Positions 1 to 17,495 of a stretch of DNA of 17,495 nt are shown here, piece by piece. A program made the position numbers and the translations under genes. Position 1 is the stretch's first letter; each line of letters opens with the position of its first letter. This DNA comes from a virus (Duplodnaviria > Heunggongvirae > Uroviricota > Caudoviricetes). Under the pieces are notes generated by a model. It had not been told where the DNA came from. It ran no database searches and saw only the letters and a program-made list of their open reading frames with translations. Where the stretch lies: positions 1 through 17,495 of IMG/VR virus record IMGVR_UViG_2548876861_000004. The stretch is one strand, 5' to 3'.

Positions 1-644
1 GCATCCCTGGCTGCATTACCGGCTGCACTTTCTGCCGTCTTTCTTGACAATTCAGCATCTGCTGCACTTTGTGATGACTCACTGGCTTTTTGAGCGGCCG
101 CAGAGGCCGAGGACGAGGACGCCTCCTCTGACTGCTTTGCAGCGGCTGCACTTTCTGCCGCCTGCCGGGCTGACTCCGATGCATCCCCTGCTGAAGTGTC
201 AGCATTTGCAGCGCTCTCTTCTGCCTGACTGGCTGATATGCCGGCATTCCTCGCTGATGTCTCCGCCTCTCCGGCATTCTTCTTCGCCTCCTCTGCGTGA
301 CGCGCCGCTTCTTCCACCATCAGTTCAAAACGACGCATTGCCTCCGGCCGGACGTCATCCTCCGACATGGCACCGAGAAAATCATTCAGCGTCCCCGGTT
401 GAGAATCTTCATACACGGTGATGGTCCCGGCATGTGATGGAGGGAATCCCTCCACCAACAGAGTGACGCTGTACTGACCATACTCGACGTCCATGCTGTA
501 ACGCCCTGCCTCATCCGGATTTTCAGAGGCCACCGTGTTCACCACCACCGTGGTGCTGTTACGTCTGGCTTTCAGTTGAATGGTGCAGTTCTGTATTGGT
601 TTTCCTGTGCCGTCTTTCAGCACACCTGAAATCTTTACTGCCAT
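1..644 (-). CDS. stf: Side tail fibre protein Stf, N-terminal part (partial; gene continues beyond window start)
   Basis: Minus-strand ATG at 642-644 opens MAVKISGVLKDGTGKPIQNCTIQLKARRNSTTVVVNTV..., which matches the N-terminus of lambda Stf (orf-401) as I recall it. It is followed by an Ala/Ser/Glu-rich low-complexity shaft, and the frame stays open to position 1. Not in the ORF track because no stop lies in the window. Confidence 0.8.
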   Translation of the reverse strand, partial: MAVKISGVLKDGTGKPIQNCTIQLKARRNSTTVVVNTVASENPDEAGRYSMDVEYGQYSVTLLVEGFPPSHAGTITVYEDSQPGTLNDFLGAMSEDDVRPEAMRRFELMVEEAARHAEEAKKNAGEAETSARNAGISASQAEESAANADTSAGDASESARQAAESAAAAKQSEEASSSSASAAAQKASESSQSAADAELSRKTAESAAGNAARD

Positions 645-653
645 ATTCACCCC

Positions 654-682
654 ACAAAAAAGCCCGCCTGAACCGGCGGGCT
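654..682 (-). terminator. Intrinsic terminator-like hairpin downstream of lom
   Basis: Plus strand reads A-run (656-661), stem AGCCCGCC (661-668), loop TGAACC, stem GGCGGGCT (675-682). On the minus strand this is a GC-rich 8-bp stem followed directly by TTTTTT. Read by eye. Confidence 0.5.
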
Positions 683-708
683 GTCATAACACTGTGTTAC
701 CTGGCTAA

Positions 709-1332
709 TCAGAATTTATAGCCGACACCCACGATGAAGCCGTCAGTGCGCCAGTCGCCACTGCCGGAACCTTCATAAGCAAGGTCAATAACCACCGTCT
801 CTACGGGACTGAACTGAATCCCGGCATTCCAGGCCGGCGACAGATGACGCGCAGTATGACCATCACTGGCGGTGGTGGTCTCCTTCACATACCCCGGTTT
901 CACTTCATCACGTCGGTAATCCTGAACACTGTCAGACCAGCGGGTGTACGCCATCCCGGCCATGCCATAGAGACTGACCCGCTCACTGAGCTGCCAGACA
1001 GGGCCGGCCATCAGACTGACATAACGACCGCGCAGGCTTTCATAATGGAAGGTATTTTCACCCGTCTTCATCGTGTCACTTTTCTTCACCGATGCATAAC
1101 TCAGCGCGACAATGCCGCCCAGGTGATCCGTGAACTCATAACGGTATTTCACATTAATCCCTTTCAGATCGCCGGCCCTGATGCCGGTACCGGAAAGCCC
1201 CGGCGTACCGTCCGGGTGCACCTGTGTGTACCCCACAGAAAATGCACCGTGTCCGCTTTCAGCCTGTGCAGGAAAGGCAATTCCTGCCAGCAGGGTAGTA
1301 AACAATAATATCGTTGCGTATAAATGCCGCAT
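709..1332 (-). CDS. lom: Lom outer-membrane beta-barrel protein (Ail/Lom/PagC family), lysogenic-conversion cargo gene
   Basis: Track ORF 709..1368. I place the start at the internal ATG (1330-1332), which has an AAGAGG Shine-Dalgarno 5-6 nt upstream and gives MRHLYATILLFTTLLAGIAFPAQA, a typical signal peptide. The C-terminus ...YEGSGSGDWRTDGFIVGVGYKF matches lambda Lom. The track's upstream extension starts at a GTG inside the J terminator hairpin. Confidence 0.9.
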   Translation of the reverse strand: MRHLYATILLFTTLLAGIAFPAQAESGHGAFSVGYTQVHPDGTPGLSGTGIRAGDLKGINVKYRYEFTDHLGGIVALSYASVKKSDTMKTGENTFHYESLRGRYVSLMAGPVWQLSERVSLYGMAGMAYTRWSDSVQDYRRDEVKPGYVKETTTASDGHTARHLSPAWNAGIQFSPVETVVIDLAYEGSGSGDWRTDGFIVGVGYKF

Positions 1333-1354
1333 GATTACCTCTTTGTTTTCAGTC

Positions 1355-1381
1355 AATAAAAAAGGCACCTCCTGAGGTGCC
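1355..1381 (-). terminator. Intrinsic terminator-like hairpin downstream of J
   Basis: Plus strand reads AATAAAAAA GGCACCTC CT GAGGTGCC. On the minus strand this is a GC-rich 7-8 bp stem followed by TTTTTTATT, between the J stop (1401) and the lom SD. Confidence 0.55.
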
Positions 1382-1400
1382 CGTCCGGGTTAATAAACCG

Positions 1401-4400
1401 TCAGCTGATACTGATCCCTGCCGTGGATTTTTTCATGACCACAACCAGTAAATCACTGATGTACGTTGTCGGCGTCCAGTTGTTCGCACCGGCCGACGAC
1501 ACATTAAACGTCAGGGTGACATGACCCCGCCCTGCCGGCATATCTATCACCGATGAGAACACCCGGCTGACATCCGTTGCCGGTTCATGGAAAATCTCAA
1601 CCCCGTTCTTCAGCACCTGCAGCTTACAGGTGGAATACCAGTACGACTGCTGATTCGGGCTGTTGAAATTCTGGTGTTTCGTCCCGCGAAACAGCACCGG
1701 GGGAATGATAATCTGCCGGTCGAAGCCCTGGTCATCGTAAACTGTGACGGTTACCGTCCCGCTGGCATAACTGTTATTCCGGGGAAAGGCTTTCCCCACC
1801 GTCTTCACCAGGTCGCCTTCAATCTGGTTTGCAGACAGTTTCCCTCTGATGACACAGTTCTCGTTAATGGTGACATTATTGAGCGTGCCGGTATTCGCGG
1901 TAATTGCTCCGCTGATATCCGCGTTCCTTGCCGTCAGCTTTCCTTCCGGCGTCAGGGAAAATGCTGGGGGATTGCCGGACGAGGTGATGCTCACCGCAAA
2001 CAGTCGTTTCAGGAACACGTCGTTCATGAACAGCTGATTCCCCTGCGCCACAAATAACGGAGTGCTGTTGCCGCTCTCCGGATTTATCATCGCGATACGG
2101 TCAGCCAGCAGCAGTATGTTGCTCAGTGGCTGGCCATCAGTATCCTCAATCCCTGCACCAATCCCGGCCACATAGGGAATGCCGTCTTTCGTTTTTTGAA
2201 CCTTCAGCATGTACAGCGCAGCCAGGTCATCATTTGTGTCCTTCTGCACGCGCTGTATCTGCTGTATGGTGGCGCTCTGGTTCTCCAGTGTTTTACTGAC
2301 CGTCTGTGTGATTTCATTGCGGGTTTCGGTGATGGTGGTCTTCATCTCCGCCATCTCATCTGCAAGCTGGCTGTTATCTATCAGTTCCCACAACCCCTGA
2401 GCCAGATGCAGTTTTCCTATTTTTTCCCGGAAAAATTCCAGATACCCTTCACCATCATTGCTGGGCTGCCCGCTGACTTCCACAAACGCAGATTTCCCCA
2501 CCAGGTTGACGCTGCGCACGTAAAACCAGAAATCCGTCCCCGGCTTAATCCGGCTTCCCTGGACAGTCCACTGACTGCCGCTCCCCAGATAACGGGCAGA
2601 TTTTTCCACCTGTGCCGTGTTCGTGATGCGTTTTTCCGAAAACCAGAACTCAAACTGTACCGTCGGGTCATACACCGCAAGACGCGGGACCGCTGTTATC
2701 TGAAAATAGCCCGGTGTCAGCTCAATCGTGGCGGGTACCGCAGGTGCATTAATCCTGAACGTGGTGGTGGCCGGTTCCCCCTGCTGGCCATAACTGTTAA
2801 TTGCCCTGACTGTCAGGGTGTATTCCCCGAGCGGCAGACCACTGAAACGATGCTCTGTATCCGCAGTGATGGCGGTGGTCACCAGACGGCTGTCCTGACC
2901 GCTTCCACTGGTCAGGCGCAGACTGAAGCGCACGCCCTTCACCACCCGCGGCGTGTCCCATTTCGCCTGTGCCAGATACTGACCGTCAGCCGCGCTCACC
3001 TCCACCGTCAGGTGCTGCACTGCCGGTGGAATAACGCTGTTCAGGGTGCCTGACTGCGGCTCAAAGCTGGCCCCGTTATCCACGATGGCTTCTTTTTCCG
3101 GTACGTGCTGCACCGCCGTGATGGCAAAGGTGCCGTCCGTGTTTTCCCGGATGGAGACACAGCGGAACAGGCGACGACGCAGTGACGGCAGGGAGAGTCC
3201 CCATACACCGTATGTCTCCACACCATCAGGCAGGGTGCTGACCTGTATCCGGTCCGGCGCGGGGTGTGCAGTGATGGCCACGCTCACCGGCTTACCGCTG
3301 CCGTTAATCAGGTTCACCGTGGCGGCACCTGTCTCCGGCAGGGTCACCTCACGGTCCAGTGTCAGGGTGCGGCTGGCGGCATCGATGGACAGGATACGTC
3401 CGCCGGTCATGGTCCCGGCATAGTCGTTATCACAGATTTCAATAATGTCACCGGGTGTGTGACGTAGCCCCTGTGACCCGAGCGTGAAATCCACCGTCTG
3501 CGTTTCCAGCAGTCCGGTCTTTATCACCCACAGCCCGGCACGGTGGGCCTGACCGCGACTGGTGCAGCCGAACGCATCCATCTTCAGCAGGTTGCGCCCG
3601 TAGCGCAGTATGGCTTCCGGGTCTTCCACCAGTTCCGTGGAGGTCTGCCAGCCGTTCTGCGGGTCGGTGTAATTCACCTCCACCGCCGTGTGGCGGTCCT
3701 TCAGGGCGCTGAAGCTGTAGCGAACCCCCACGCCGTTATCATCCACCACCACATCGCAGTTGGTGTACGGCCACACCACATCCGACGGGCGGTCCTGAAC
3801 GAACGTCAGCGTCTGGCCGTTCCATACCGGCATACAGCGCATCGCCGAGCAGAAATCACTGAGAACGTCCCACGCCTTACGCTGTTGTGACAGGTACGCA
3901 TTAAAGGTCATCCGCGGCTCTGTGCCCCCGAAACCATCCGGGACCGTCTGGTCGCAGTACTGCGCAATGGCATACAGCGCCCACTTGTCCACATCCGCCG
4001 CCCCCAGGCGTTTTCCCATGCCGTAGCGCGGGTGAGTCAGCATGTCCCACAGGCACCAGACCGGGTTATTGCTGTATGCCGGTTTCAGGCTGCCGTCCCA
4101 GATGCCGCTGTACGTGCGTTTTTCCGGGTCATAGTTTGACGGCACCTGGATGATGCGACCTCGGATATGGTAGTTCACCGTCATCTGCTGACCGCCAAAC
4201 TGCTCCGCATCCACCTGCAGCCCCACAATCGCCGTGTTCGGGTAGCACTGTTTCACATCGATGATTTCGGTGTATGACGACCAGAGCGTCTTATTCTGCA
4301 GCTGGTCCGAGGTGCTGTCCGCTGTCTCCCGGACCATCCGGATGTTAAAGGGCCGCTCAGGCAGATTATCCAGAATCACCGACGCCAGAAACTGCGAGGT

Positions 4401-4877
4401 GGTCTTGCCGTTAATGGTGACATCCTTTTCCGTCACCCAGTTACCGTTACGCTGCAACTGAATCAGCAGTCGGACAGAAGAGGGATTACGGTCGCCCTTT
4501 GAGGTGGTCTCCAACAGTGACTGCACCCCGAAGGTGACCCGCAGGCGGTCAATGTTCGCGGACGTAATGGTGCGCGTCACCGGCTTTGCTTTCGTCACTT
4601 CCACGCCCAGTGCGGTTTCCGCCCCGGAGGACTCAAAGCCTTCAGGTGGTGTCTGCTCCTGCTCCCCGGCGCGCCAGACCGCTGTCACACCATGTATCAC
4701 AGGATTACCGTCCGTGTCCGTCAGCGGGGTTTTGTTCACCAGGATACTCTGCAGCCCCTTCACCGGACCTTCAATCGGCCCTTCACCAATGGCATCAATC
4801 ACGCTCATCATCTGCGTGGACTTAAGATTGTCCTTTGCCTCAACCGGCGTGTGCGCCTTGCCGCCACCTTTACCCAC
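1401..4877 (-). CDS. J: Tail tip / central tail fibre protein J (host specificity protein)
   Basis: 1158-aa ORF. The N-terminus [22 protein letters not shown]... and the long central region match lambda gpJ (1132 aa) from recalled sequence. The start codon is GTG (plus-strand CAC at 4875-4877), preceded by AGGAGAGGGGGA. The C-terminal ~300 aa diverge from lambda. Confidence 0.95.
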
Positions 4878-4920
4878 TCTGTCCCCCTCTCCTGTCTGAT
4901 GTCTGAATCTGTTTATGCCC

Positions 4921-4952
4921 CAAAAACGACAGGCACCCCGGAGGGTGCCTGT
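4921..4952 (-). terminator. Terminator-like hairpin in the I-J spacer, oriented with the operon
   Basis: Perfect 10-bp stem ACAGGCACCC (4929-4938) / GGGTGCCTGT (4943-4952) with loop CGGA. On the minus strand it is followed, after a 2-nt spacer, by TTTTT then GGGG. It sits about 45 nt upstream of the J start. Confidence 0.4.
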
Positions 4953-5085
4953 GTCATGACGGAATAAAATTTCTGAATTTCTTCACATTTTCTGTACGCC
5001 CCCGTGGCAGATATCATTCCCGGGCGTTACAGTTTTTTCGGGCCAATAAAAACAAAACTCCCTGTGGTTAATCTTCATTTTCTGT

Positions 5086-5118
5086 TCCCGCAGCCTCCAT
5101 ACACTGCGGGATTTTTTT
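5086..5118 (+). terminator. Terminator-like hairpin with T7 run, plus-strand orientation (convergent with gene I)
   Basis: Stem CCCGCAG (5087-5093) / CTGCGGG (5104-5110) with a 10-nt loop, then A followed by TTTTTTT (5112-5118) on the plus strand. It lies immediately 3' of the I stop codon (5124-5126). On the minus strand the run reads as A7 upstream of the stem, so it is not a minus-strand terminator. Confidence 0.4.
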
Positions 5119-5123
5119 ATGCT

Positions 5124-5804
5124 TTACCCCTGCCGCCCGATAACCACCACCTTCCCGCCACCACCTTCATCACGGGTGCTGATGTCCTGGGAGATTCGCC
5201 GGGAGCCAACCAGCATTTCACCGTAAGGCACCGGCATCGGGTTCCCCTGGGCAATCATGTTGTCCAGTGACGAAAAATACGTGTTCTGTTTACCGTTATC
5301 CGTACTTTTGTACTCCGGCGTCTTTGCCTTCGGGGCCAGCATCTGAGCCACACCGCCCAGTATCATGCTGGCACCCAGTGAAAACAGCATCGTGGTGGCA
5401 GAAAAACCACCGGCTGCCAGGGCTGAACCCCATAACGCCATCGAGCCTCCGGCCGTGAAGAAAGAGCCCACGATGGCTGCCGCCCCCAGCACAATCTGCA
5501 GTCCGCCTTTCCCTGCACCGGCCAGTCGCGGCACAATATGGATGACCGTTCCCTCACCCAGAGGTTCGTGAAGACGGGCGTACACCGCCTCCGGTGCCGT
5601 GTCCTCACCGCGAATACGTATCTGGTACCAGCCTTCGTTCATCTGACGGCGGAATCCCGGCATCTGCATCGACAGGGCACGGATGGCTTCCGCTGCCGTG
5701 TTCACATACAGGCTGAGGCGGCGGCCAAATCGTTGCAAATCCCCGTGAAGGCAGATGCGTGCCAGTGGCGGTGACGCCAGACAGAATGCGTTCGTCGTTG
5801 CCAT
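5124..5804 (-). CDS. I: Tail assembly protein I
   Basis: 226-aa ORF, ATG start at 5802-5804 with GGAGAGG SD. MATTNAFCLASPPLARICLHGDLQRFGRR... matches lambda gpI. The Gly/Ala-rich C-terminal half is hydrophobic. The 5' 103 nt overlap the 3' end of K, as in lambda. Confidence 0.9.
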   Translation of the reverse strand: MATTNAFCLASPPLARICLHGDLQRFGRRLSLYVNTAAEAIRALSMQMPGFRRQMNEGWYQIRIRGEDTAPEAVYARLHEPLGEGTVIHIVPRLAGAGKGGLQIVLGAAAIVGSFFTAGGSMALWGSALAAGGFSATTMLFSLGASMILGGVAQMLAPKAKTPEYKSTDNGKQNTYFSSLDNMIAQGNPMPVPYGEMLVGSRRISQDISTRDEGGGGKVVVIGRQG

Positions 5805-6445
5805 TTTTCGGAATACCTCTCCCGTTTACTCAGTTGTTCAGGCAGATGGTGAAGCAGTTCACCGTTGCCGCAGTAAATGGCGGCATGATTGGCCACCGAT
5901 GCGCCAAAGCAGCACAGCAGGATATCGCCCGCCTGTGCAGAGGACAGGGGCACCCGGTAAAAGCCGGTGACCGCCATATTGTCCAGGTAAAGGTTCTGAC
6001 CGTTGCGCCACCAGTCATCCTCACGCTCAAAACCCGGCATATCAATTCCCGCCAGATGGTAGGCATCCCGGAACAGCGTGTAACAGTCCGTCACCCCGTG
6101 CTCAAAGCGCCGTCCCGTCAGGTGCGGCACGCAGCGGAATTTGTGAATGTCACCCCGGCAGACCAGCCACCAGGGCAGTGCGCTTTTTATCTGCAGCCGC
6201 CGGTCAGCCTCGCTCAGCCAAGGCAGACCACCGGGATGACTGTGGACCAGTGCCACAATCTCCCCCTGCATCTCTGCCCGCAGCCAGTCTTCCGGTGCAA
6301 TACGAAAATACGCCTCCGGCTCTGCAGAGATATTCACACAAGGGATATACCGCTCCCCCTCCGGCGTTCTCACCACGAAGCCGCACGACTCCGCAGGCAC
6401 ACACCGCCGGGCATGCGCCAGAATCGCTGATTCTGTCTGTGTCAT
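5702..6445 (-). CDS. K: Tail assembly protein K (JAMM/MPN metallopeptidase plus NlpC/P60-like domain)
   Basis: 247-aa ORF starting MTQTESAILAHARR, as in lambda K. It carries a perfect JAMM motif, HSHPGGLPWLSEAD (HxHx7Sx2D). ATG at 6443-6445, 5 nt after the L stop. Confidence 0.9.
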   Translation of the reverse strand: MTQTESAILAHARRCVPAESCGFVVRTPEGERYIPCVNISAEPEAYFRIAPEDWLRAEMQGEIVALVHSHPGGLPWLSEADRRLQIKSALPWWLVCRGDIHKFRCVPHLTGRRFEHGVTDCYTLFRDAYHLAGIDMPGFEREDDWWRNGQNLYLDNMAVTGFYRVPLSSAQAGDILLCCFGASVANHAAIYCGNGELLHHLPEQLSKRERYSEKWQRRTHSVWRHRHWHASAFTGICNDLAAASACM

Positions 6446-6450
6446 TGGAT

Positions 6451-7149
6451 TTACTGCGAAAGTTTGTTAATGGAAAGGAAACCGCCAAAATTAGCCACCA
6501 TGCCGCGCATCTCACACCCGCGCATGCACTTGCTGCATCTGTCCTTACGGATATCGGTGGTGGGTTTATCGAACTCATCCGCCACCGCAGGACCGTTATA
6601 CCCGCATTCATCTCCCCGGTAATCCCACATACAGGTGTTCGCCAGCATGATGCGACCGGGAAACAGCGCTCCGTCCGTCTCCGTCGGTGTTGCCAGCACA
6701 AACGAGGCTGTCATGGCCGTCAGCTCTGACATCTGCTCCACCACCCAGCGGTCGCTCAGCTCCTGCTCCGGGTCCGCTTCCGGATTGCCCGCCACAAAAT
6801 TCACCGCATCCAGAAAACGGGCATACACCCGGCGGCGGACCACCGTGGCCCCCACCAGGCTCTGCAGGTCCTCCGCCATTCCGGTGACCAGACCGAACAG
6901 ATTGGACACCGTCAGTGACGGGCGGGCACTGCTGCCCTTCCCGTTCATCTCAAAACCGCTGCCGTCAATCGGGTATGCCTGATATTGCCGCCCCTGCCAG
7001 GTAACCGCCTCCCCTTTTTCATTCAGCTCATTGCAGAAAAAATACCGCTCACCACCCTGTACCGTCAGGTCGATTTCCCAGAGTACCACCCGCGGTGACT
7101 GCTCTGATTTAACCGACTCGTTCAGACTTTCTTCGTGAATATCCTGCAT
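6451..7149 (-). CDS. L: Minor tail protein L
   Basis: 232 aa, the same length as lambda gpL. The Cys-rich C-terminal motif (CSKCMRGCEMRGMVANFGGFLSINKLSQ) matches lambda gpL. The start ATG overlaps the M stop (TGATG). Confidence 0.92.
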   Translation of the reverse strand: MQDIHEESLNESVKSEQSPRVVLWEIDLTVQGGERYFFCNELNEKGEAVTWQGRQYQAYPIDGSGFEMNGKGSSARPSLTVSNLFGLVTGMAEDLQSLVGATVVRRRVYARFLDAVNFVAGNPEADPEQELSDRWVVEQMSELTAMTASFVLATPTETDGALFPGRIMLANTCMWDYRGDECGYNGPAVADEFDKPTTDIRKDRCSKCMRGCEMRGMVANFGGFLSINKLSQ

Positions 7150-7478
7150 CAGTTCACCACCTGCTTAAACTCCGCGCTGAATTCAACCCGCAGCATGCGA
7201 ACCCGTGATGACCAGGCGGCACAGGTCACCTTTATCTGCCGCCAGGCATAAGGCGGTGTCCACAGAAACGCCTTCCAGCCACCGTGCTCTGCCAGGAATG
7301 CCTCCAGATGTCGGGCCTCCTCCCGGGTCACGGAAAGCGTCACACGGTATGTTTTCAGGTCAGCATTCAGCCCCGCCGCCATACGCTGCGAATACCCGTC
7401 ACCAAAACGCACTTCACGCACCGATGGCTGCGAGTTCACCTCCATATCCGGCTTCACTTTCCAGCGAAATGTTTTCAT
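7149..7478 (-). CDS. M: Minor tail protein M
   Basis: 109 aa, the same length as lambda gpM. ATG at 7476-7478 overlaps the H stop (ATGA); GGAGG SD upstream. Confidence 0.92.
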   Translation of the reverse strand: MKTFRWKVKPDMEVNSQPSVREVRFGDGYSQRMAAGLNADLKTYRVTLSVTREEARHLEAFLAEHGGWKAFLWTPPYAWRQIKVTCAAWSSRVRMLRVEFSAEFKQVVN

Positions 7479-10054
7479 CGCCTGCCTCCGGAAAATACGC
7501 CGCCATCACGCATCTGCGCCTGAATCTCATCCTGCGCCCCCTTGCGGGCCATGTCATACACCGCCTTCATCAGCTGCGGCCCCGCCCGTCCGTTGGTGCC
7601 GTCGTTCTGAATCACCACGTGATTGTTCTGATTAAAATTAATGCCTTCCGTCCGCCGCATCTGCGCCGGACTTCCGGCACCGCCCACATAACCACCTTCC
7701 GCATAGCCCCGCATCAGGCGGTACAGGTTGCCGACGCCAATCCGGCTGGTTGCCTCCTTCGTGAAGACAAACTCCCCGCGATGAACAATCCCCGCAGGTT
7801 CATATTTACCCCCCGTCCCCGTAAATCCCCCGGTCGCGAAATGGAAGTTCGCCGCCGCAGCCTGAATGGCCGTCCCCGTGGAGGCAGACGCACCACCACC
7901 GAAAGCACCGCCAATGGCGCTGCCGATACTCCCGACTATCCCCACCATCGCCTGCTTCAGAAAAATCTCTGTCAGCATGGAGAGCACAGAACGGGTGAAA
8001 CCACGCCAGTTCTGTTCGCTGCCGGTCAGCATCGCTGCCATATTCTGTGCAATACCGTCAAAGGTCTGCGTGGCCACGCTTTTAACCTGCGAAAAACTGT
8101 CCGTCGCACTTTCCGCCCACTCGCCCCAGCCGGACTTCAGACCGGCCATCCAGCTTCCACGAAGCTGCTCCTCCGCAGACCAGGTGTTCTTCAGTGCAGA
8201 TGTGGCCTTCGCCAGCGCATCCGGATTATCACCGTACACGTCACGAAGGCGCTGCTCTTCCGACTCCCGCTGCGCCTGACGGTCGGTGAGGCCCCGCGCC
8301 TGGGCACTGATTGCCGCCTGCTTCGCGCTCTGCTGCTGCTCAAACCGCGCAGCCTGCTGTGCCAGCTCATTCAGCCGTTTCTGGTGTTCAACTTTGTCTC
8401 CCAGCTCAGCCAGCTGGCGTTTGTACTCCAGCGTCTCTTTCTCATGGGTCAGCAGGGATTTTTCCTGCTCAGATAACTGCCGTTTCGTGGCTGCCTCTTT
8501 CAGGACCGCATACTGATTTTCCGCTTTCCATAAATCGCGACGCTGCTGGCTGATTTTCTCATTCGCACCGCTGAGTTTTTCCAGCGTCCGGAGCTCGGTT
8601 TCAAGCGCCAGCAGGGCAGCATGCGCCTGGTCTTCCTGACGCTCACCGGCTGACACTTTGACTCCTGACGACTTCGGCTTTTTCAGCGTCGATTCATAAT
8701 CCTTTTTCGCCGCCGCCATCAGCGTGTTGTAATCCGCCTGCAGGATTTTCCCGTCTTTCAGGGCCTTATTCAGTTCTTCCTGACGGGCGGTATATTTCTC
8801 CAGCGGCGTCAGCAGACGCTCATACGCCTTCTGCGCCTCTCCGGTATACTTCAGCTGTGATGCGTCCCGTTCGGCCCGGTCCCTGGCGGCCAGTTCACCG
8901 GCTTTTTCCATATCCGACTGCAGCGTGGCCGCTGCCAGCCCCAGACGGGCATTTTCCCGGTCATCCCATGCACCCTGAAGGTTCGCACGAAAAGAGGCGG
9001 TTTTTCCCCGGCGCTGGCTCCGGCTCTGGTACCACTGCCATTTTTTATCCGCCTCATCAAATGCCTTCTGTGCACTGGCGAGCATATCCGCTGAGGACTC
9101 AGGACGACCGATATCCAGAATGGCATCCCACATCGATTTGAATGCCTTCCCTGTTTTATCCGCCCAGGTCTCCAGTGTCCCCATGTTTTCTTTCAGGCGA
9201 CGGGTCTGCTCATCAAAGCCTTTCGTGGCGATATCGTTCGCCGCCTGTAAGGCCCCGGCCTCATCACCGGAACGCTGCAGCTGTGCAACATACGCAATCT
9301 GCTCTGCCGTCACGTTACGGAACTGGCGCGCCATCGCCATCAGTCCCGACGTCGGGTCAGTGGTCAGCTTCCCGAAGGCTTCAGCGACTTTATCCACCTC
9401 CACACCGGATGCAGACGCAAAACGCGCGACACTCTGGTTGATGGCATCAAACTGTTCACCACCACGCACACCGGCATTCACCAGGGCTGCCAGTGACTCT
9501 CTCGCCTGGTTAAACGTCAGCCCTGCTGCCTGCCCGGCTCTTGAGAGAGTCAGCATACGATCGGCAGTCAGTCCGGACTGATTACCGGAAAGAACCAGGG
9601 TTTTATTAAACGCTGAAAGCGTGGAATCCCCCTGGTACCAGGCGTACGCCAGCGCACCTGTCGCCACCGCCAGCGAGGTGACCCCGACCATCGGCAGGGT
9701 GATCGCACCGGCAAGTCCCCTGAACATGGGGATCATCCCGCCGAAGGAGTCCTTCACCTGACCGCCCTGTTGCAGCAGGATCAGCCAGGGATTCTGACCA
9801 CCGGCAAGCTGCGTGGCGATATCCGTAAACTGTGCGGGCAGGGTTCGCATGGCCGCTTTATACTGCCCGACGGAAATCCCGGCTTTTTGTGCAGCCAGCG
9901 CCTGACGACTCAGGTTCTGCTCAACAACACCGGCGGTTTTTCTGGCGTCAGTCTCCAGTCCGGAAAAATGACGCCTTACCCGGCTCATCTGCTCATCGAA
10001 ACGGACCGCATCCAGACTCAGGTCAATAACAAGATCACCAACCGGCTGGGACAT
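7475..10054 (-). CDS. H: Tail tape measure protein H
   Basis: 859 aa. MSQPVGDLVIDLSLDAVRFDEQ... and the Gly-rich C-terminal segment match lambda gpH (853 aa). ATG at 10052-10054 with GGAGGTG SD; overlaps the end of the T frame by 20 nt. Confidence 0.95.
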   Translation of the reverse strand: MSQPVGDLVIDLSLDAVRFDEQMSRVRRHFSGLETDARKTAGVVEQNLSRQALAAQKAGISVGQYKAAMRTLPAQFTDIATQLAGGQNPWLILLQQGGQVKDSFGGMIPMFRGLAGAITLPMVGVTSLAVATGALAYAWYQGDSTLSAFNKTLVLSGNQSGLTADRMLTLSRAGQAAGLTFNQARESLAALVNAGVRGGEQFDAINQSVARFASASGVEVDKVAEAFGKLTTDPTSGLMAMARQFRNVTAEQIAYVAQLQRSGDEAGALQAANDIATKGFDEQTRRLKENMGTLETWADKTGKAFKSMWDAILDIGRPESSADMLASAQKAFDEADKKWQWYQSRSQRRGKTASFRANLQGAWDDRENARLGLAAATLQSDMEKAGELAARDRAERDASQLKYTGEAQKAYERLLTPLEKYTARQEELNKALKDGKILQADYNTLMAAAKKDYESTLKKPKSSGVKVSAGERQEDQAHAALLALETELRTLEKLSGANEKISQQRRDLWKAENQYAVLKEAATKRQLSEQEKSLLTHEKETLEYKRQLAELGDKVEHQKRLNELAQQAARFEQQQSAKQAAISAQARGLTDRQAQRESEEQRLRDVYGDNPDALAKATSALKNTWSAEEQLRGSWMAGLKSGWGEWAESATDSFSQVKSVATQTFDGIAQNMAAMLTGSEQNWRGFTRSVLSMLTEIFLKQAMVGIVGSIGSAIGGAFGGGASASTGTAIQAAAANFHFATGGFTGTGGKYEPAGIVHRGEFVFTKEATSRIGVGNLYRLMRGYAEGGYVGGAGSPAQMRRTEGINFNQNNHVVIQNDGTNGRAGPQLMKAVYDMARKGAQDEIQAQMRDGGVFSGGRR

Positions 10055-10906
10055 ATCTCACACCTCCGGAAATCCCCGCTGAAGCCATCATTAATGCGAC
10101 ATCATCCTCGCTGACATCCGCCACATCCGCAGACGATAAAATCTCACGCCCTCCGTCCCCACCAAACCGGACGCCTCCGGCAAGTCCTGCCGCTTTCTGC
10201 ATCAGCATTTTTTCCTCATCCGGCATCTCCGTCTGCGCTTCCTCACGCCGGGGGGCAAGCAGACTGAAATCAGAGGGATGCATATCCGGATCGCAAAAAA
10301 ACAGGCTGAGTACGGCGTACGTCAGCCCGGAAAAATGCATATCCAGTTGGGTATCGAGAAAATAATGCGTACGGTAAAAATGTCGCCAGTCGGCATATTC
10401 GGTGGATGTCATCCCGGCAAGCATGGCGCGCCAGTCAGGCCTCCCCATCTCACGCGCCAGTCTGAGGGCAAAATTCAGCTCGCCGTCGAAGACTTTCCCG
10501 CAGAAAAATCATCATCAGTCAGCGCGTTATTTTTCGCCACTTCGGTGCTGTCAGTATCCGCATGAACAGCCCCGCTCATCCCGGACAGACGCAACACCAC
10601 ATCTTCCGCCCGGGCAATGGCATCCGCAGGCCAGGTGGTGAGCACCTCCTGTTCGATCTGCATCACAGCCTCATTCATTGACGGTGATGCCGTTTTCTGC
10701 GGATGGTTATGCCACAGGGACATCGCCACCAGAAACGCGCCGGTTCTGACGAGATCTTCCACGCTTACCTGCAGGTTGCCGCTGGATTCTGCCTGTTCTG
10801 CACGCCGTTTCAGGAGGGCAAGATGCTCAATACGCTGCAGCGCAGACAATTCGGAAAGCGTGACGGACACACCGTTATATTCAAATTGTTCTGTTTTCAG
10901 AAACAT
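10035..10906 (-). CDS. G-T: Tail assembly chaperone G-T fusion, made by a programmed -1 ribosomal frameshift
   Basis: The G frame (10475..10906) and the T frame (stop at 10035-10037) overlap. I translated across the junction by hand: slipping -1 at GGGAAAG gives ...GKVFDGELNFALRLAREMGRPDWRAML..., which runs into the track ORF 10035..10448. Confidence 0.85.
10475..10906 (-). CDS. G: Tail assembly chaperone G
   Basis: 143 aa. MFLKTEQFEYNGVSVTLSELSALQRIEHLAL... matches lambda gpG (140 aa). ATG at 10904-10906 with GGAGG SD. Confidence 0.92.
   Translation of the reverse strand: MFLKTEQFEYNGVSVTLSELSALQRIEHLALLKRRAEQAESSGNLQVSVEDLVRTGAFLVAMSLWHNHPQKTASPSMNEAVMQIEQEVLTTWPADAIARAEDVVLRLSGMSGAVHADTDSTEVAKNNALTDDDFSAGKSSTAS
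10493..10499 (-). promoter_or_regulatory. Slippery heptamer G GGA AAG for the G-T -1 frameshift
   Basis: Plus-strand CTTTCCC at 10493-10499 is GGGAAAG on the minus strand, in register G GGA AAG, six codons before the G stop. This is the same heptamer used by lambda. Confidence 0.8.
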
Positions 10907-10919
10907 GTATTACCTCCGT

Positions 10920-11672
10920 TTACCCTGCAGCGCCCGCTTCAGTAACGGTGACTTCAGCCACTGCGGCGAACTGACCATTTCCGCTCACCACAGGGATCTG
11001 CACCTTACCTGTCGCCACGCCGTTTACCGTAATTGTCATATCTTTCACACTAATGGTGGCTTTCGACGGATCGGCGGAAACCGCTCTGAACGTCTTGTCG
11101 GTTGCACTTTCCGGCTCAAAAGAAACCGTCAGGGTGGTTGTTTTCCCTTTTGCCACCGTACCGGATGTCGGCGTCACCTTAATCGCAGTGACCGGCGTAA
11201 TTTTGCTGCGTTCTTCCGCTACAGAAGGTTTGCCCACGTTGGTCACTTTCACCGTGCGGGTGATCACTTCTTTCGCCGTCACGGCCTTACCGATACTGCT
11301 GACCCAGCCACGAAACACATCCACCGTGCCGTTCGGAAAACGGATTTTATAGGCCCGCACATCCCCGCTTTCAAACCAGCCTATAAGCCCTTTCTGACCT
11401 TCTTCTCCCGGTTTCCAGGCCAGCGTAAAACTGGTATCTCCTGCAGACTTCTGCCCCTGCCCGGTCGCGGTCCAGTCCGCGTCTTCATCATCCAGGTAGT
11501 TATCATCGTAGGGTTCTGCCGTCATCTCGCCCGGCGTCAGATCCTTCACCTTAGCCAGTCGCTGCCAGTCATCGTCTGACAACGGGTTTGCATAGGCGTC
11601 ACCCTGACCGTTATAAACCCACAGGGTGGTACCGGCACCTTTTACCGGCTCAAGGGGATTTGGTGTTGACAT
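10920..11672 (-). CDS. V: Major tail tube protein V with C-terminal Ig-like domain
   Basis: 250 aa. ...[10 protein letters not shown]...[15 protein letters not shown]...[36 protein letters not shown] matches lambda gpV; the C-terminal ~90 aa resemble its Ig-like (Big_2) domain. ATG at 11670-11672. Confidence 0.93.
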
Positions 11673-11679
11673 ATCGTCC

Positions 11680-12075
11680 TCACATCTCGTATGTAATGGA
11701 ATAAGTCAGATCCGCAGAACTCCATAACGCCATATCGTCATCACGACGATACTCATAGCCCTGCGTAACCATCGTGGTAATCAGGTCTGCCAGTGCCGGG
11801 ATCGCAGTCATCGCCGGATAAATCCGGCTTTCCATCCACGAATCCAGCTCCGAATCCGGTACCTGTGCTGGTAAAAACACCTCAATATGCAGTGTGGCCC
11901 GCCAGGTATCTGCATCCAGCTCTTCACCGGTATACTCTGCATCCGTCAGATAAACCGCGACCGCGGGAAAATCCTCTTCGTCAAAAACAACGGGGCGACC
12001 ATCAAACAGCGTCGCCCCGTGTTCATGCAGCTCCAGTGCATCCAGCACTGCAGCACGGATATCAGTATGTTTCAT
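11680..12075 (-). CDS. U: Tail terminator protein U
   Basis: 131 aa, the same length as lambda gpU. ATG overlaps the Z stop (ATGA). Confidence 0.9.
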
Positions 12076-12605
12076 CGTTTTATCGCAATCCTCAGTTGTT
12101 GTTTCAGCGCGTATGCCAGTTCTCCGGGCAGACGTTCACGCCGGATACGGTCAACATTCTCATCAAACGCCTGTTTCAGTGGGGCCGCCATCGGGATTTT
12201 CACCACATCAATGGGGTAACGGTTTTTCCCGACCACACGCTGCATGACATGCCAGCGACCATTTTTTAATCGCTGAATAAATGCCCGCTGATAACGATGC
12301 TGACCGGCTTTGAGTATGCTGTCCGGACGACGCCCCGGCATCCTGATCCCCAGCTTAATCACCGGGAGATCACCGCGGTTAACGATAATTCTGGCATTCG
12401 GATTTCTGACCGTGGCCCGTTTCAGCCTGGACCGTTCCTTAACCAGTTTCCGTCTCACCCTGGTTTCCCGGGCAACCTGTGATGAAGACTGATTAATCGC
12501 CGTTGTGGCCACGCGGTTAATGGTCATTGCAGAAGCCGCCGGAATGGCGTTTTTACGAACCCGGCTCAGATTATCAATCGCCTGCTCAAGCCCTTTTATC
12601 GCCAT
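12072..12605 (-). CDS. Z: Tail completion protein Z
   Basis: 177 aa. MAIKGLEQAIDNLSR...AFIQRLKNGRWHVMQRVVGKNRYPIDVVKIPMA matches lambda gpZ. ATG at 12603-12605. Confidence 0.9.
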   Translation of the reverse strand: MAIKGLEQAIDNLSRVRKNAIPAASAMTINRVATTAINQSSSQVARETRVRRKLVKERSRLKRATVRNPNARIIVNRGDLPVIKLGIRMPGRRPDSILKAGQHRYQRAFIQRLKNGRWHVMQRVVGKNRYPIDVVKIPMAAPLKQAFDENVDRIRRERLPGELAYALKQQLRIAIKR

Positions 12606-12620
12606 AATTTCACCCTGCGT

Positions 12621-12974
12621 TTATCGTCGCCGGTTAACGGCGGGTGGTTGCCCACGGTTGAGCCAGAGATAACAGCTGCCCCCGTCATCCGGAGAAACAC
12701 GATCCACCCAGAACGTCTCACCATTAATGGTCAGCGTGTCACCACGCCGCACAGCACGAACCGTATCCGTCCGCACAAATAATGACGGGCTGCTTCCTTC
12801 AATACGGACCCCGCTACCGGCAAATCCCAGCGACTCCGGATCGTCAAAAACCCCCTGAACTTCTCCGCCACACTGTGCCCCCGAGGTGAACTGTGCACAG
12901 AGCCCCATCACTTCAACAATCGTACTGTCCACCCCGGCAAGGGCAGCATCAAAGGCATTCTGAAAATCACGCAT
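12621..12974 (-). CDS. FII: Head-tail joining protein FII
   Basis: Track ORF 12621..13010. I place the start at the internal ATG 12972-12974, giving 117 aa (the lambda gpFII length) that open MRDFQNAFDAALAG... and end ...GDTLTINGETFWVDRVSPDDGGSCYLWLNRGQPPAVNRRR. This ATG overlaps the FI stop (ATGCGTGA). Confidence 0.85.
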   Translation of the reverse strand: MRDFQNAFDAALAGVDSTIVEVMGLCAQFTSGAQCGGEVQGVFDDPESLGFAGSGVRIEGSSPSLFVRTDTVRAVRRGDTLTINGETFWVDRVSPDDGGSCYLWLNRGQPPAVNRRR

Positions 12975-13341
12975 AAACAGCCATTCCGCCATCAACGTGT
13001 GTTTTTGCATCTGAGGACATAATCAGAATCACCCGACCAACATCCGCAATCTCAACGGATTCCCCTGTTTCACCATCAATGCCACAGAGATGGAGGCAGG
13101 TCAGAACTCTGATGCGCGTTAACGCACCGGATGTATCCTCACGAACATCATGAGCCGCGGTTTCCCGCTCCCGGATCACCGTATCCCCAACCTGAACATC
13201 CTCGCCGGATGACTGTATTTCCTCTTCCCATTCCGCCACCCGCTGCGCTATCTCTGCGGCACTCCCGGATATATCCGGCTCACGCCCCAGAATCAGGGCC
13301 AGTTCATCAAGCCGTTTCAGATTTTGCTCTTTCGTTGCCAT
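12967..13341 (-). CDS. FI: DNA-packaging / head assembly protein FI (divergent)
   Basis: Track ORF 12967..13389 starts at a GTG 3 nt after the E stop. I place the start at ATG 13339-13341 (MATKEQNLKRLDELALILG...), which has a G-rich SD-like run (CAGGGGGCTGAT) upstream and aligns with the lambda FI N-terminus. 124 aa, more diverged than neighbouring genes. Confidence 0.75.
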   Translation of the reverse strand: MATKEQNLKRLDELALILGREPDISGSAAEIAQRVAEWEEEIQSSGEDVQVGDTVIRERETAAHDVREDTSGALTRIRVLTCLHLCGIDGETGESVEIADVGRVILIMSSDAKTHVDGGMAVYA

Positions 13342-13355
13342 ATCAGCCCCCTGTG

Positions 13356-13384
13356 AAAAAAGACACGGGGGCATTTCGCCCCCG
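13356..13384 (-). promoter_or_regulatory. GC hairpin plus T6 run between E and FI (possible attenuator)
   Basis: Plus-strand stem CGGGGGC (13366-13372) / GCCCCCG (13378-13384) with loop ATTTC. On the minus strand a T6 run (13356-13361) follows after a 4-nt spacer, just 5' of the FI SD. The spacer makes terminator function uncertain. Confidence 0.3.
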
Positions 13385-13392
13385 CTCACGGA

Positions 13393-14421
13393 TTATTTCA
13401 CCTGTACCACCACAAACTCATCCGGGTCCGGCAACACCATCAGCGGCGCGGACTGCGTCATGGTAAATTCACGGGCGGGATCCCCCACCGTCAGCCAGTG
13501 TTTCGGATAACGGGAAGAGGCCACCACACCTTCGGACAACGCCTGCGCATCCTGAATGGCACCGTAACAACGGATCCCATCTGCAGCAGTATTCCCCAGA
13601 ACCAGCATGCCCTCCGGCAGATAACGTTTTTCGATACCGTCTTCTGCTATATAAGACGTTTTCGCCACCACAATGGCCAGATCGCCGTAATACCCCTTGA
13701 AGGACACCACTGCGCCCAGATCTTTCACTGCCGTTTCGAGTTGAGAATTTGAACCGCGACGGGTATCCAGTTTTTCGCGGAACAGCTTAAAACCATTCAG
13801 AAGACGCCAGACGGTACCGTCCATAATGGCAATATTCACAAGACCGCTGGCCTGGTCGCAGTAGAGGTCAAGATCATGTGTAGGATCGAACGTGTCACGA
13901 TCCTGTTTTGACCACTCCTTACCACTACCCTGAGTGATGTTATTCTTCGTCGACCTGCCAAAATCGACCTCAATTTTCTCGAACTGGTCTCCTTCCATCG
14001 TATATTTGCCATACAACACAGCATTTACCGCCTGTATTTCTTCCACCTGGACAATCGCGTGCTCTTCCTGTTTGAGGTTATCGGTAATGATACGCAGACG
14101 GCGGTAAGCCGGATCGTTCAGTTGAGCCGGATCTTCACCAGGAAGGCGCTCAACCGCCTGCTGGTAATTAAATTCGTGTTTCGGCTTGACGTAGCCCGGA
14201 CGTAACACGCGGGTTTCACCACCACGATGACGCAGCACTTTTCCTTCAACAACCGGGGAGACATAGGCCGCCACCGGCGTTTTTCCGGTAATTTTGTCCA
14301 GCATCACCTCTTCGGTATGGAAATTCACCGTACGGCGGAAAAACAGCTCCAGAAACAGCGCACGAAATTTCACTTTTTGTTCGGTATAACCGAGTAACTG
14401 GCGGGTCGTAAACAATCCCAT
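13393..14421 (-). CDS. E: Major capsid protein E
   Basis: 342 aa (lambda gpE is 341). ...PGYVKPKHE...NNITQ...LDTRRGSNS.LETAVKDLG...TTGDPAREFTM.QSAPLM matches lambda gpE. ATG at 14419-14421. Confidence 0.95.
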   Translation of the reverse strand: MGLFTTRQLLGYTEQKVKFRALFLELFFRRTVNFHTEEVMLDKITGKTPVAAYVSPVVEGKVLRHRGGETRVLRPGYVKPKHEFNYQQAVERLPGEDPAQLNDPAYRRLRIITDNLKQEEHAIVQVEEIQAVNAVLYGKYTMEGDQFEKIEVDFGRSTKNNITQGSGKEWSKQDRDTFDPTHDLDLYCDQASGLVNIAIMDGTVWRLLNGFKLFREKLDTRRGSNSQLETAVKDLGAVVSFKGYYGDLAIVVAKTSYIAEDGIEKRYLPEGMLVLGNTAADGIRCYGAIQDAQALSEGVVASSRYPKHWLTVGDPAREFTMTQSAPLMVLPDPDEFVVVQVK

Positions 14422-14450
14422 AAATCAGTTCCTTTCATTCAGAAATCAGT

Positions 14451-14470
14451 CAGGCCACCGCGGTGGCCTG
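14451..14470. repeat. Perfect 20-bp palindrome in the D-E intergenic region
   Basis: CAGGCCACCGCGGTGGCCTG is its own reverse complement and contains a SacII site. It lies between the D stop (14479-14481) and the E SD. No T-run follows on either strand. Confidence 0.6.
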
Positions 14471-14478
14471 ATAACGTG

Positions 14479-14826
14479 TTACGGCAGCGCCGCGTGACTC
14501 AGGGCACTGCCGGCAAAGGCATTTGCCTTTTTGTGTTCATCCACACTTTCAGGCCAGCGGATTGCCTCCGTCGCAAAGGTCCCCGACTTGTAATAGGTCA
14601 GTACCGTCTCTGTGCCTTCAAGCGGCAGTACCAGTATGCCAACTGCACTACCGGCTTTCTGTCCGTCCCAGACCACCAGTTTCCCGCTGGCTTCATCCAG
14701 CATCAGGGGCGTCAGTGCCGGTGTTGCCGAGGAAATCCCGCTGCTGCCTGTGGCGGTATGAGCCGGATCATTACCGGCAAAAATACGTACTTCCGCACGC
14801 TGTTCAGTGATGGTTTTCGTTACCAT
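14479..14826 (-). CDS. D: Capsid decoration protein D
   Basis: 115 aa. ...DPAHTAT...TPLMLD...GILV...YYKSGTF...AFAG matches lambda gpD (110 aa). ATG at 14824-14826 with AGGAGG SD. Confidence 0.92.
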   Translation of the reverse strand: MVTKTITEQRAEVRIFAGNDPAHTATGSSGISSATPALTPLMLDEASGKLVVWDGQKAGSAVGILVLPLEGTETVLTYYKSGTFATEAIRWPESVDEHKKANAFAGSALSHAALP

Positions 14827-14862
14827 ATTGTAAAAACCTCCTGTTGATGATCAGCACTGACT

Positions 14863-15678: not shown

Positions 15679-16357
15679 GTCCTGGCGAACCTCTGCCGGT
15701 AAGGCTTCAAACTGATTGCCATCCACCTTGTGCGCCCCTGAGTAAATCAGCGTGATATCCACACCGGCCTGCGCCAGATGACCGGCATAGCTGACATGGC
15801 TCATCATCACGCCAATGGAGCCGATACGGGATGTCTGGGTAACCAGCCGTCGGGAGCAGGCCGACGCCAGCAGCATGGCTGCAGAACAGGCCGTGTCATT
15901 GCACAGTGCCCAGACCGGCTTCTGCTGACGGAGGCGGTAAATCATGTCAGCGCAGTCAAACGCGCCGGCGGCCTGCCCGCCCGGACTGTCAATGTCCAGC
16001 AGTATGCCCCGCACCTGGCTATCTGCCATTGCCTGCTGAAGACAGGCGACAATGCCGTCATAGCCAGTCATTCCGGAAAATGGCCGCATCCCCCCCAGCC
16101 GGTGCACCAGCGTGCCGGTCACCGGCAGTACCGCAATACCGTTCACCACCCGGTAAACACGGGCCGGTCGTTTACCTCCGGCCATGTACTCGTCCGTTTC
16201 AGCCAGCATTCCGGGAGCATCAAGCTGTACCTGCTGTTGTGGTACCGAAAGACTTGCTGCCCCCATCTCGCGCCCGAGCGCGCAAAAGAAAACCCGCGCA
16301 TAGGCGGGCTCCAGAAGCAGCGGTTCATTGAATGCTGCGGCAATAATGTGTGAAAGA

Positions 16358-16368: not shown

Positions 16369-17495
<1,127 letters not shown>

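Follow-up and report, generated by a model that had tools for sequence, protein, structure and literature searches.

A probable antisense small RNA gene of the PasB/EcOnc22-24 family in the I-J spacer of a lambdoid tail operon

Introduction

The closest described relatives of the locus considered here come from EPEC and EHEC prophages. The small RNA (sRNA) PasB, for pathogenicity-associated sRNA B, is encoded in prophage PP6 of EPEC E2348/69, where its 83 nt were placed on the minus strand at NC_011601.1 1466343-1466261 (PMC8550237, Table S6); the northern probe used for it was AATCCCGCAGTGATCGCGGAGCT (PMC8550237). PasB is Hfq-dependent, its level dropping by 6.8 log2 units when hfq is deleted (Pearl Mizrahi et al. 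2021, PMC8550237), and its seed has been located immediately ahead of the terminator (Zhu, Shabalina and Storz 2026, bioRxiv 10.64898/2026.05.13.724894). In EHEC Sakai, three homologous Hfq-CRAC peaks were reported (PMC4104026, Table S2), namely EcOnc22 in prophage Sp15 (2902714-2902774, plus strand), EcOnc23 in Sp14 (2676643-2676704, plus strand) and EcOnc24 in Sp11 (2166694-2166753, plus strand). EcOnc22 gave a northern band of about 85 nt and was destabilised without Hfq, while EcOnc23 and EcOnc24 were reported as Hfq-CRAC peaks (Tree et al. 2014, PMC4104026). A review lists EcOnc22-24 with targets unknown (PMC7873438). For the PasB/EcOnc22-24 RNAs, targets have been listed from RIL-seq, and their function is described as not elucidated. 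In the literature that we searched, no link was drawn between PasB and EcOnc22, the latter being named only in a review, and the PasB entry of Table S6 (PMC8550237) gives no EHEC homologue.

Another point of comparison is provided by the anti-sRNAs AgvB and AsxR and the convergent sRNA pairs, which EHEC prophages carry at their PR' moron site (Tree et al. 2014, PMC4104026). AgvB and AsxR resemble the family discussed below in being prophage-borne, Hfq-binding, short, multicopy, conserved at the 3' end and variable at the 5' end. They differ from it in lying downstream of PR', outside the tail operon, and in their unrelated sequence. We know of no sponge activity for PasB or EcOnc22.

Herein, we describe a spacer between the tail genes I and J of a lambdoid prophage, compare it with these published loci and with homologous junctions, and weigh several explanations of its contents.

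Results

The I-J junction and its distribution

The window, that is, the whole stretch of 17,495 nt that was analysed (positions 1 to 17,495 of IMG/VR record IMGVR_UViG_2548876861_000004), carries on its minus strand an operon with the portal, protease, capsid and tail genes, the tape measure, M, L, K, I, J and lom. These gene identities are backed by a near-identical annotated operon of E. coli O145 FWSEC0002, and the stretch as a whole represents a lambdoid prophage's operon of late structural genes. The junction of interest consists of the following parts:

1401..4877, minus strand, J tail gene, with a GTG start
4878..5123, no strand assigned, I-J spacer of 246 nt, a polymorphic cargo slot of lambdoid tail operons
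5124..5804, minus strand, I tail gene, marking the other gene boundary

An earlier note on this DNA had pointed to an enlarged spacer between I and J and had given about 60 nt for the same junction in lambda. Both points hold, since the spacer measures 246 nt between the two genes and, in our comparison of junctions, lambda and the phages closest to it had a gap of 59-60 nt. Nor is the spacer confined to this phage. Of 5426 complete E. coli genomes, 786 contain it, the median number of copies being 4, and so do 147 phage records. It recurs at 95-100% identity in many Stx1a-, Stx2a- and Stx2c-converting phages and in BP-4795; the allele of the window itself is represented in BP-4795 and in the Stx1a phage Stx1_111698, at 99.6-100% identity. 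None of the 786 carrier E. coli genomes has an annotation for it in RefSeq.

For the comparison of alleles, we took 79 IMG/VR I-J junctions with an I protein at least 95% identical, together with reference loci. Their I-proximal 125 nt collapsed into 37 unique variants, which aligned well. The window allele is the commonest single class in the IMG/VR sample (16 of the 79 junctions).

The plus-strand element and its published relatives

The I-proximal part of the spacer, read on the plus strand and thus antisense to the tail operon, contains three nested features:

5024..5118, plus strand, sRNA gene of the PasB/EcOnc22-24 family, assigned by a covariance model match; antisense to the tail operon
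5045..5078, plus strand, single-stranded sRNA body, the likely seed and Hfq-contact region; motifs conserved and predicted unpaired
5086..5118, plus strand, predicted Rho-independent terminator of the sRNA (8-bp stem, 10-nt loop, U7 tail)

A stem followed by T7 beside the I stop had been seen earlier, and it withstands closer inspection: UCCCGCAG at 5086-5093 pairs with CUGCGGGA at 5104-5111, T7 follows at 5112-5118, and the hairpin, at -13.9 kcal/mol (z = -4.7), was more stable than each of 200 shuffles. A simple terminator scan, which admits loops of up to 8 nt, did not call this hairpin because of its 10-nt loop. The U7 tail ends at 5118, 5 nt from the I stop codon. Among the 37 unique alleles, the stem is unchanged in 36 (the exception reads CCCGCAA), and the loop varies in length and sequence. 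With one single-base change and no compensatory pair in the 37 alleles, no covariation was seen in this stem, as it hardly varies. A Rho-independent terminator with a long U tail is the usual Hfq-binding module, and the window copy shares it with the PasB/EcOnc22-24 family.

Upstream of the terminator, the alignment of the 37 variants reveals a conserved GCGUUA-N-U-rich start of the RNA, followed by a variable stretch of about 25 nt (about 5030-5055) in the 5' part, which falls into at least 4-5 allele classes. The body then contains an A-rich (A-R-N-like) run at 5045-5057, AACUCC at 5056-5061 and UUAAUCUUCAU at 5068-5078, the latter two motifs being conserved across the 37 alleles. According to folding predictions, the RNA outside the terminator is largely unpaired, as would be expected for an Hfq-dependent base-pairing RNA. 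Positions 5045-5078 are likely to be the seed and Hfq-contact region.

To place this element among the published RNAs, a covariance model was built from 16 alleles, including PasB and EcOnc22 and leaving out all window-type alleles. The model matched the plus strand of the window over its full length at 5024-5118 (67.3 bits, E = 1.7e-12), and the next-best match in the window reached 8.5 bits. The window allele is 77% identical to PasB over about 100 nt and 75% identical to EcOnc22, the differences lying mainly in the 5' half. It thus has homology in sequence and structure to the published members, and it also shares with them the location in the I-J gap, the antisense strand and a 3' end beside the I stop.

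In E2348/69, both genes are on the plus strand, with the end of I at 1466255 and the start of J at 1466496. By these coordinates, PasB is situated between the two genes on the antisense strand, and its 3' end is 6 nt away from the I stop. PasB and the window copy therefore agree in gap and strand, and they also share the CCCGCAG/CUGCGGG stem, whose U7 tail runs to within 5-6 nt of the I stop, the AACUCC and (U/G)AUCUUCAU motifs and a -10 hexamer at the same aligned column. They differ in the 5' part of the RNA, in the terminator loop and in the -35 hexamer, which is TTCACA for PasB and the weaker TTCTGT in the window. Expression and Hfq dependence were established by experiment for PasB and are predicted for the window allele.

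The Sakai loci required a correction, as the coordinates of Tree et al. (2014) refer to NC_002695.1 and our comparison record was NC_002695.2. The shift between the two, about +128 to +146 nt, was anchored on AgvB (by its Rfam match) and on the StxS tR' terminator and falls short of single-nucleotide precision. In Sakai, the I-J gaps span 2902691-2902930 (Sp15), 2676622-2676861 (Sp14) and 2166672-2166911 (Sp11). After the shift, the EcOnc22-24 peaks fall in the I-proximal third of the gap, on the body of the RNA that ends at CCCGCAG/CTGCGGG-T7. These peaks, being on the plus strand, are antisense because the tail operons of Sp15, Sp14 and Sp11 are on the minus strand. EcOnc22-24 thus share slot and strand with the window copy, and both the alignment and the covariance model place them in one family. 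The 110 nt nearest to J, among them the sense hairpin (see below), are almost identical between the Sakai EcOnc alleles and the window, but the central part of the spacer, about 70 nt, has diverged. The exact allele of the window is absent from Sakai Sp4, Sp10, Sp11, Sp14 and Sp15.

Such evidence induces us to infer that PasB and EcOnc22-24 are alleles of one family at one phage position. By sequence and predicted structure, the plus-strand element of the window is an unannotated copy of this sRNA gene with a different 5' end. The earlier suggestion that the spacer might harbour a small RNA is thus borne out for the plus strand, by the covariance match and the published loci. The earlier note had also said that a spacer common among lambdoid phages with no transcript ends mapping there, or hairpins no more stable than shuffled controls, would speak against it. 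The spacer is indeed common, yet published transcript ends map to it, and both of its hairpins were more stable than every shuffle.

Several other sRNA families were considered. Rfam yielded no family for this sRNA, whether the region was searched at a permissive E-value or gathering thresholds were applied to the whole window; the highest-scoring match in the region had 18.5 bits against a threshold of 49.5 and covered the terminator only, and the same Rfam search recovered AgvB and STnc100 at Sakai control loci. AgvB, AsxR, STnc100 and Esr41 did not reach their gathering scores in the window. An identity with the AgvB/AsxR anti-sRNAs was rejected on the different locus and the missing model match in the window. 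Likewise, we rejected HnrS (EcOnc10-12), a multicopy prophage sRNA, whose published coordinates lie about 5 kb from the PR' site.

The putative promoter and the ends of the RNA

Two further plus-strand features precede the sRNA gene:

4957..4989, plus strand, A/T-rich block with upstream TTCACA (ACGGAATAAAATTTCTGAATTTCTTCACATT), nearly invariant among the window, Sakai and E2348 alleles
4990..5017, plus strand, putative sigma-70 promoter of the sRNA, assigned by alignment with the E2348/69 PasB promoter

Upstream of PasB, E2348/69 has a near-consensus TTCACA-16-TATAAT (11 of 12 matches), which aligns with the putative promoter of the window. The latter is composed of TTCTGT at 4990-4995, a 16-nt spacer and TATCAT at 5012-5017. 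Its -10 hexamer, at the column of the PasB TATAAT, matches the consensus at 5 of 6 positions, and its -35 hexamer is poor (2 of 6). A -10-like hexamer (TATAAT, AATAAT, TATCAT or GATAAT) stands at this one fixed column in all alleles whose slot lacks sodC (the gene is introduced below), with a perfect TATAAT in many of them, and the sodC-linked modules have no -10 at the aligned column. A consensus promoter scan called no plus-strand sRNA promoter in the window; the same scan made no call on the northern-confirmed Sakai allele either, so the missing call is weak evidence against expression. The A/T-rich block at 4957..4989, which is largely kept in the spacer class of 336-343 nt, may contribute an upstream or UP-like portion to the sRNA promoter.

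From the promoter geometry, the primary transcript would start near 5024 and measure about 95 nt; if it resembles the 83-nt PasB, the mature RNA probably starts near 5036-5039. The published 5' end of PasB corresponds to about 5036 of the window; because the ends of PasB were set from RNA-seq coverage and band size, this position fits either processing or initiation. For the window allele itself, expression and targets are extrapolated from its published relatives, and the start site from the promoter geometry.

The 31-codon open reading frame

The middle of the spacer also contains, on the operon strand, a short open reading frame (ORF) that had been remarked on before:

4983..5078, minus strand, 31-codon ORF, judged spurious; translation MKINHREFCFYWPEKTVTPGNDICHGGVQKM, then stop

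The ORF is present at 5078..4983 and translates as reported, and its Shine-Dalgarno sequence is weak in the window, again as reported. That it encodes a 31-residue protein expressed with the tail operon appears extremely improbable to us, even though its Sakai and E2348 counterparts share MKIN at the start. We looked for a conserved frame among the homologous loci and did not see one: the ORF has 31 codons in the window, 41 in Sakai and 22 in E2348, the 3' part being frame-shifted, and its ATG is ACG in the L078 and L073-type alleles. Besides, the start of the ORF (ATGAAGATTAA) is the reverse complement of the conserved sRNA motif UUAAUCUUCAU, with which the shared N-terminus coincides. With length, frame and start codon all unconserved across alleles, the ORF was rejected as a gene.

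The sense-strand hairpin

The J-proximal part of the spacer contains a second hairpin, this time on the strand of the operon:

4922..4952, minus strand, terminator-like hairpin called by the terminator scan; 10 bp, tetraloop, then CG and U5

The earlier note had described a perfect 10-bp GC-rich stem followed by TTTTT about 45 nt upstream of the J start. The stem (4952..4929, with 7 GC pairs and a 4-nt loop) and the TTTTT at 4926-4922 are as described, and the distance from the end of the stem to the J start is corrected to 51 nt. At -23.1 kcal/mol (z = -5.6), the hairpin was equalled by none of 200 shuffles. It has a GC-rich stem, a short loop and a U-run 3' of the stem, as intrinsic terminators do. 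In nine variants of the hairpin, pairing is kept in 98.9% of the stem cells. At one pair, three variants have U-A instead of C-G, with U.G as the intermediate, and seven further stem cells are G.U or U.G, which on the opposite strand would be A.C mismatches. If the hairpin is under selection, it is thus the operon-strand RNA that would be selected. The compensatory support is modest, resting on one pair, and 19 of 500 column shuffles scored as high.

Lambda, too, has a GC-rich operon-strand hairpin that runs into a T-rich tract a short distance ahead of J, although the lambda hairpin differs in sequence (AAACCGCC/GGCGGTTT), lies 19 nt rather than 51 nt from J and belongs to a spacer of 60 nt without an antisense gene. 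A Citrobacter prophage likewise has an unrelated GC hairpin and T-rich tract, 19-20 nt before J. Our literature search found no published function for the lambda I-J hairpin.

Late transcription starting at PR' is subject to antitermination by Q, and intrinsic terminators are expected to be read through. In view of this established lambda biology, the hairpin at 4929-4952 with its U5 is most likely an intrinsic terminator or insulator in the prophage state. An attenuator of the I:J ratio, as had been proposed, or an element of mRNA stability or processing is a possible alternative. In its general form, this alternative holds that both hairpins have a cis effect on the mRNA of the late tail genes, by attenuation, processing or stability and with or without pairing of the sRNA, and so set the I:J ratio. 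The canonical terminator form of the minus-strand hairpin and its strand-specific compensatory changes suit this idea, the lambda and Citrobacter hairpins 19-20 nt before J suggest a recurring need at the junction, and, read from the sequence, the sRNA would be perfectly complementary to about 95 nt of late mRNA after the I stop. On the other hand, Q-antiterminated transcription is expected to pass intrinsic terminators, and the sense hairpin is absent from sodC-type junctions in otherwise near-identical operons, from which it follows that the hairpin is not essential for J expression. Overall, we regard a cis role as conceivable, if rather unlikely.

Could the same hairpin be the end of a second sRNA, transcribed from the minus strand of the spacer? 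A strong terminator-like hairpin with U5 and about 110 nt of J-proximal sequence nearly identical between alleles would suit such an RNA. However, no promoter-like site was seen on the minus strand of the window or on the operon strand of the Sakai and E2348 loci, and all peaks that the published Hfq-CRAC list places in these gaps are on the antisense strand (PMC4104026). Nor do the EPEC RIL-seq tables, in the portions available to us, list such an intergenic RNA. The conserved block, for its part, is explained as the upstream part of the sRNA promoter, to which recent recombination with the adjacent 5' end of J may have added. We therefore hold a second sRNA to be very improbable and keep to a terminator or insulator as the preferred reading of the sense hairpin.

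The junction as a cargo slot

Sorted by length, the I-J junctions form several classes. The spacers of 234-260 nt were found at 49 loci, those of 340-343 nt at 19 and those of 848-851 nt at 13; further classes are the lambda type of 59-60 nt and the 714-nt form of the Citrobacter prophage. The 848-851-nt and 714-nt forms contain an antisense Cu,Zn superoxide dismutase gene in the slot. This gene, sodC, is annotated in O145 FWSEC0002, whose operon is 97.8% identical to that of the window, and it is also found in the slots of Sakai Sp4 and Sp10 (ECs_1120 and ECs_1989). The slot genes appear to be the phage sodC-F genes of D'Orazio et al. (2008, PMC2569942).

Where the slot of E. coli prophages holds sodC, an sRNA-like module is located between sodC's own terminator and the I stop; this module may be silent, or transcription running on from sodC may produce it. 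The O157:H7 morons sodC-F1 and sodC-F2 thus share with the window the I-J slot, the antisense orientation and the I-proximal module with its final terminator. They differ by the presence of sodC, by a module without the -10 hexamer and by an unrelated J-proximal spacer. The alternative contents of the slot are, accordingly, the sRNA, the sRNA with an extra element, and sodC with the sRNA module. Allele classes and slot classes are shuffled relative to each other, and this pattern indicates modular recombination. As in morons, the module is absent from lambda, the slot has alternative contents and a terminator is present, with a promoter that is predicted.

The earlier note had also offered the enlarged spacer as the scar of a lost insertion, and part of this idea stands, as the slot is polymorphic and near-identical operons do carry sodC in it. 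In its strict form, the idea says that the spacer is an inert remnant of a lost sodC moron, an old 3' untranslated region with its terminator, functionless now. It is in line with this that the 97.8%-identical operons have antisense sodC with the same module in the slot, that Sp4 and Sp10 are arranged likewise and that the sodC-linked copies of the module have no -10 at the aligned position. Against it, the -10-like hexamer is fixed in all sodC-less alleles, being a perfect TATAAT in many, and two sodC-less alleles are expressed as discrete Hfq-dependent RNAs. In addition, the seed motifs are kept across alleles that are 68-77% identical overall, and the spacer outside the module is unrelated between sodC and non-sodC forms, which argues against a simple deletion. 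An inert scar is, in our view, quite improbable: because of the fixed -10 and the two expressed sodC-less alleles, we read the spacer as a gene rather than as a dead scar.

Discussion

Our results suggest that the I-J spacer of this EHEC/EPEC-type lambdoid prophage is, with good probability, a cargo module containing an antisense, Hfq-dependent sRNA gene and a separate sense hairpin. The following scenario might be proposed. A sigma-70 promoter with its -10 TATCAT at 5012-5017 would start transcription near 5024, yielding a largely unstructured RNA body with an allele-specific 5' part, the A-rich run, AACUCC and UUAAUCUUCAU, and the transcript would end at the terminator 5086-5111 with its U7 to 5118. 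By analogy with PasB and EcOnc22, the RNA would be made in the lysogen, be stabilised by Hfq and base-pair in trans with host and island mRNAs, and the differing 5' regions of the alleles might give them differing target sets. The sense hairpin would stop unmodified RNA polymerase before J, lom and the downstream cargo in the lysogen, while Q-modified polymerase would read through it in lytic growth.

It is tempting to suppose more, namely that the I-J slot is a diversifying sRNA system, with one scaffold and interchangeable 5' regions, whose RNA possibly also acts in cis on the late mRNA. We consider this extended scenario unlikely as it stands. If it were true, the promoter position, AACUCC, UUAAUCUUCAU and the terminator would form the conserved scaffold, and at least 4-5 5' regions would recombine freely with the slot contents (sodC and the extra J-proximal element), so that each prophage copy would re-target Hfq regulation differently. 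If the cis action were true as well, the RNA would be complementary to the late tail mRNA just upstream of J and, with the sense terminator as its partner, would tune J or insulate the downstream virulence cargo in the lysogen.

Returning to the cargo module with its antisense sRNA gene, the feature noticed in this spacer is real and is largely explained already, the window adding a distinct allele of a known family. Existing knowledge is not overturned, and the outcome is consolidation rather than surprise. What goes beyond the literature that we searched is that PasB of EPEC and EcOnc22-24 of EHEC would form one family at one fixed phage position, and that the phage sodC-F genes are found in the same slot, upstream of the same module. 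This raises the question of whether the sRNA was born from, or captured by, the 3' region of sodC. The I-J locus is among the most widespread unannotated features of EHEC/EPEC prophages, and the comparison made here provides a simple route to annotate the family and to ask whether the 5' regions of its alleles alter their target sets.

Other contents of the I-J slot

The gap between the tail genes I and J (246 nt in the window) is occupied in some related operons by a gene for Cu,Zn superoxide dismutase (sodC), lying antisense between I and J, in operons that share 97-98% identity with the window. The positions of sodC, together with an additional segment found in a class of longer spacers, are as follows:

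L045 5011-5538, plus strand: antisense sodC, in the slot that corresponds to I-J of the window
L126 10678-11205: sodC in the I-J slot of Sakai Sp4
L127 8675-9202: sodC in the I-J slot of Sakai Sp10
L008, with a spacer of 336 nt, and spacers of the 340-343-nt class, e.g., L078 and L059: extra J-proximal segment of ~130 nt

It is because sodC sits between I and J that many whole-window matches contain an extra segment of ~600 bp. In these sodC-bearing slots, the sRNA-like module is found downstream of sodC and lacks a -10 element. The extra J-proximal segment of L008 and the 340-343-nt class carries a different hairpin, AAACCCGGTATC/GATACCGGGTTT, flanked on both sides by T-rich tracts. This hairpin could be a bidirectional terminator, or a second antisense RNA, one that overlaps the ribosome-binding region of J, could end there.

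Elsewhere in the Sakai prophages, two matches to the Rfam family STnc100 were found:

L005 838-1047, minus strand: STnc100 match, downstream of stx1B in Sp15
L006 428-620, plus strand: STnc100 match, adjoining AgvB, a prophage anti-sRNA, in Sp10

Both appear to correspond to the partner RNAs in the convergent sRNA pairs known from the PR' moron site, in the EcOnc42 and EcOnc06 regions.

Assemblies, coordinates and gene annotation

Lambda or E. coli prophage sequence was also observed within assemblies labelled Neobacillus, Pseudomonas, Chromatium, Shewanella, Streptomyces, Enterococcus and others. The loci concerned are L010-L023, L027 and L034-L040, all with a lambda-type I-J junction, plus L008 and L042, and their carriers are often low-coverage contigs or contigs of ~48.5 kb. 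Almost certainly, these species-representative assemblies are contaminated with E. coli or with lambda DNA at all of these loci.

For Sakai, the published sRNA coordinates (NC_002695.1; Tree 2014, Sy 2020) are offset by ~+128 to +146 nt relative to the current RefSeq record, NC_002695.2, at 1.94-2.93 Mb, so that naive look-ups reach the wrong part of a 240-nt intergenic region.

The true start of gene I is ambiguous. Its longest ORF in the window (226 aa, ATG at 5804, minus strand) shares with K a 103-nt overlap (5702-5804, minus strand), while homologues in current RefSeq start ~99 nt further in and have 193 aa; old and new annotations of E2348/69 disagree in the same way.

Finally, the annotation of Sp15 splits J (L002 719-4191) into two CDS that overlap, ECs_2943 and ECs_2944, and the CDS at the J start in Sp14 (L003), ECs_2720, has the same truncated length as in Sp15. 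This suggests that the host-specificity gene J is frameshifted and defective in both prophages, though the adjoining sRNA is expressed.
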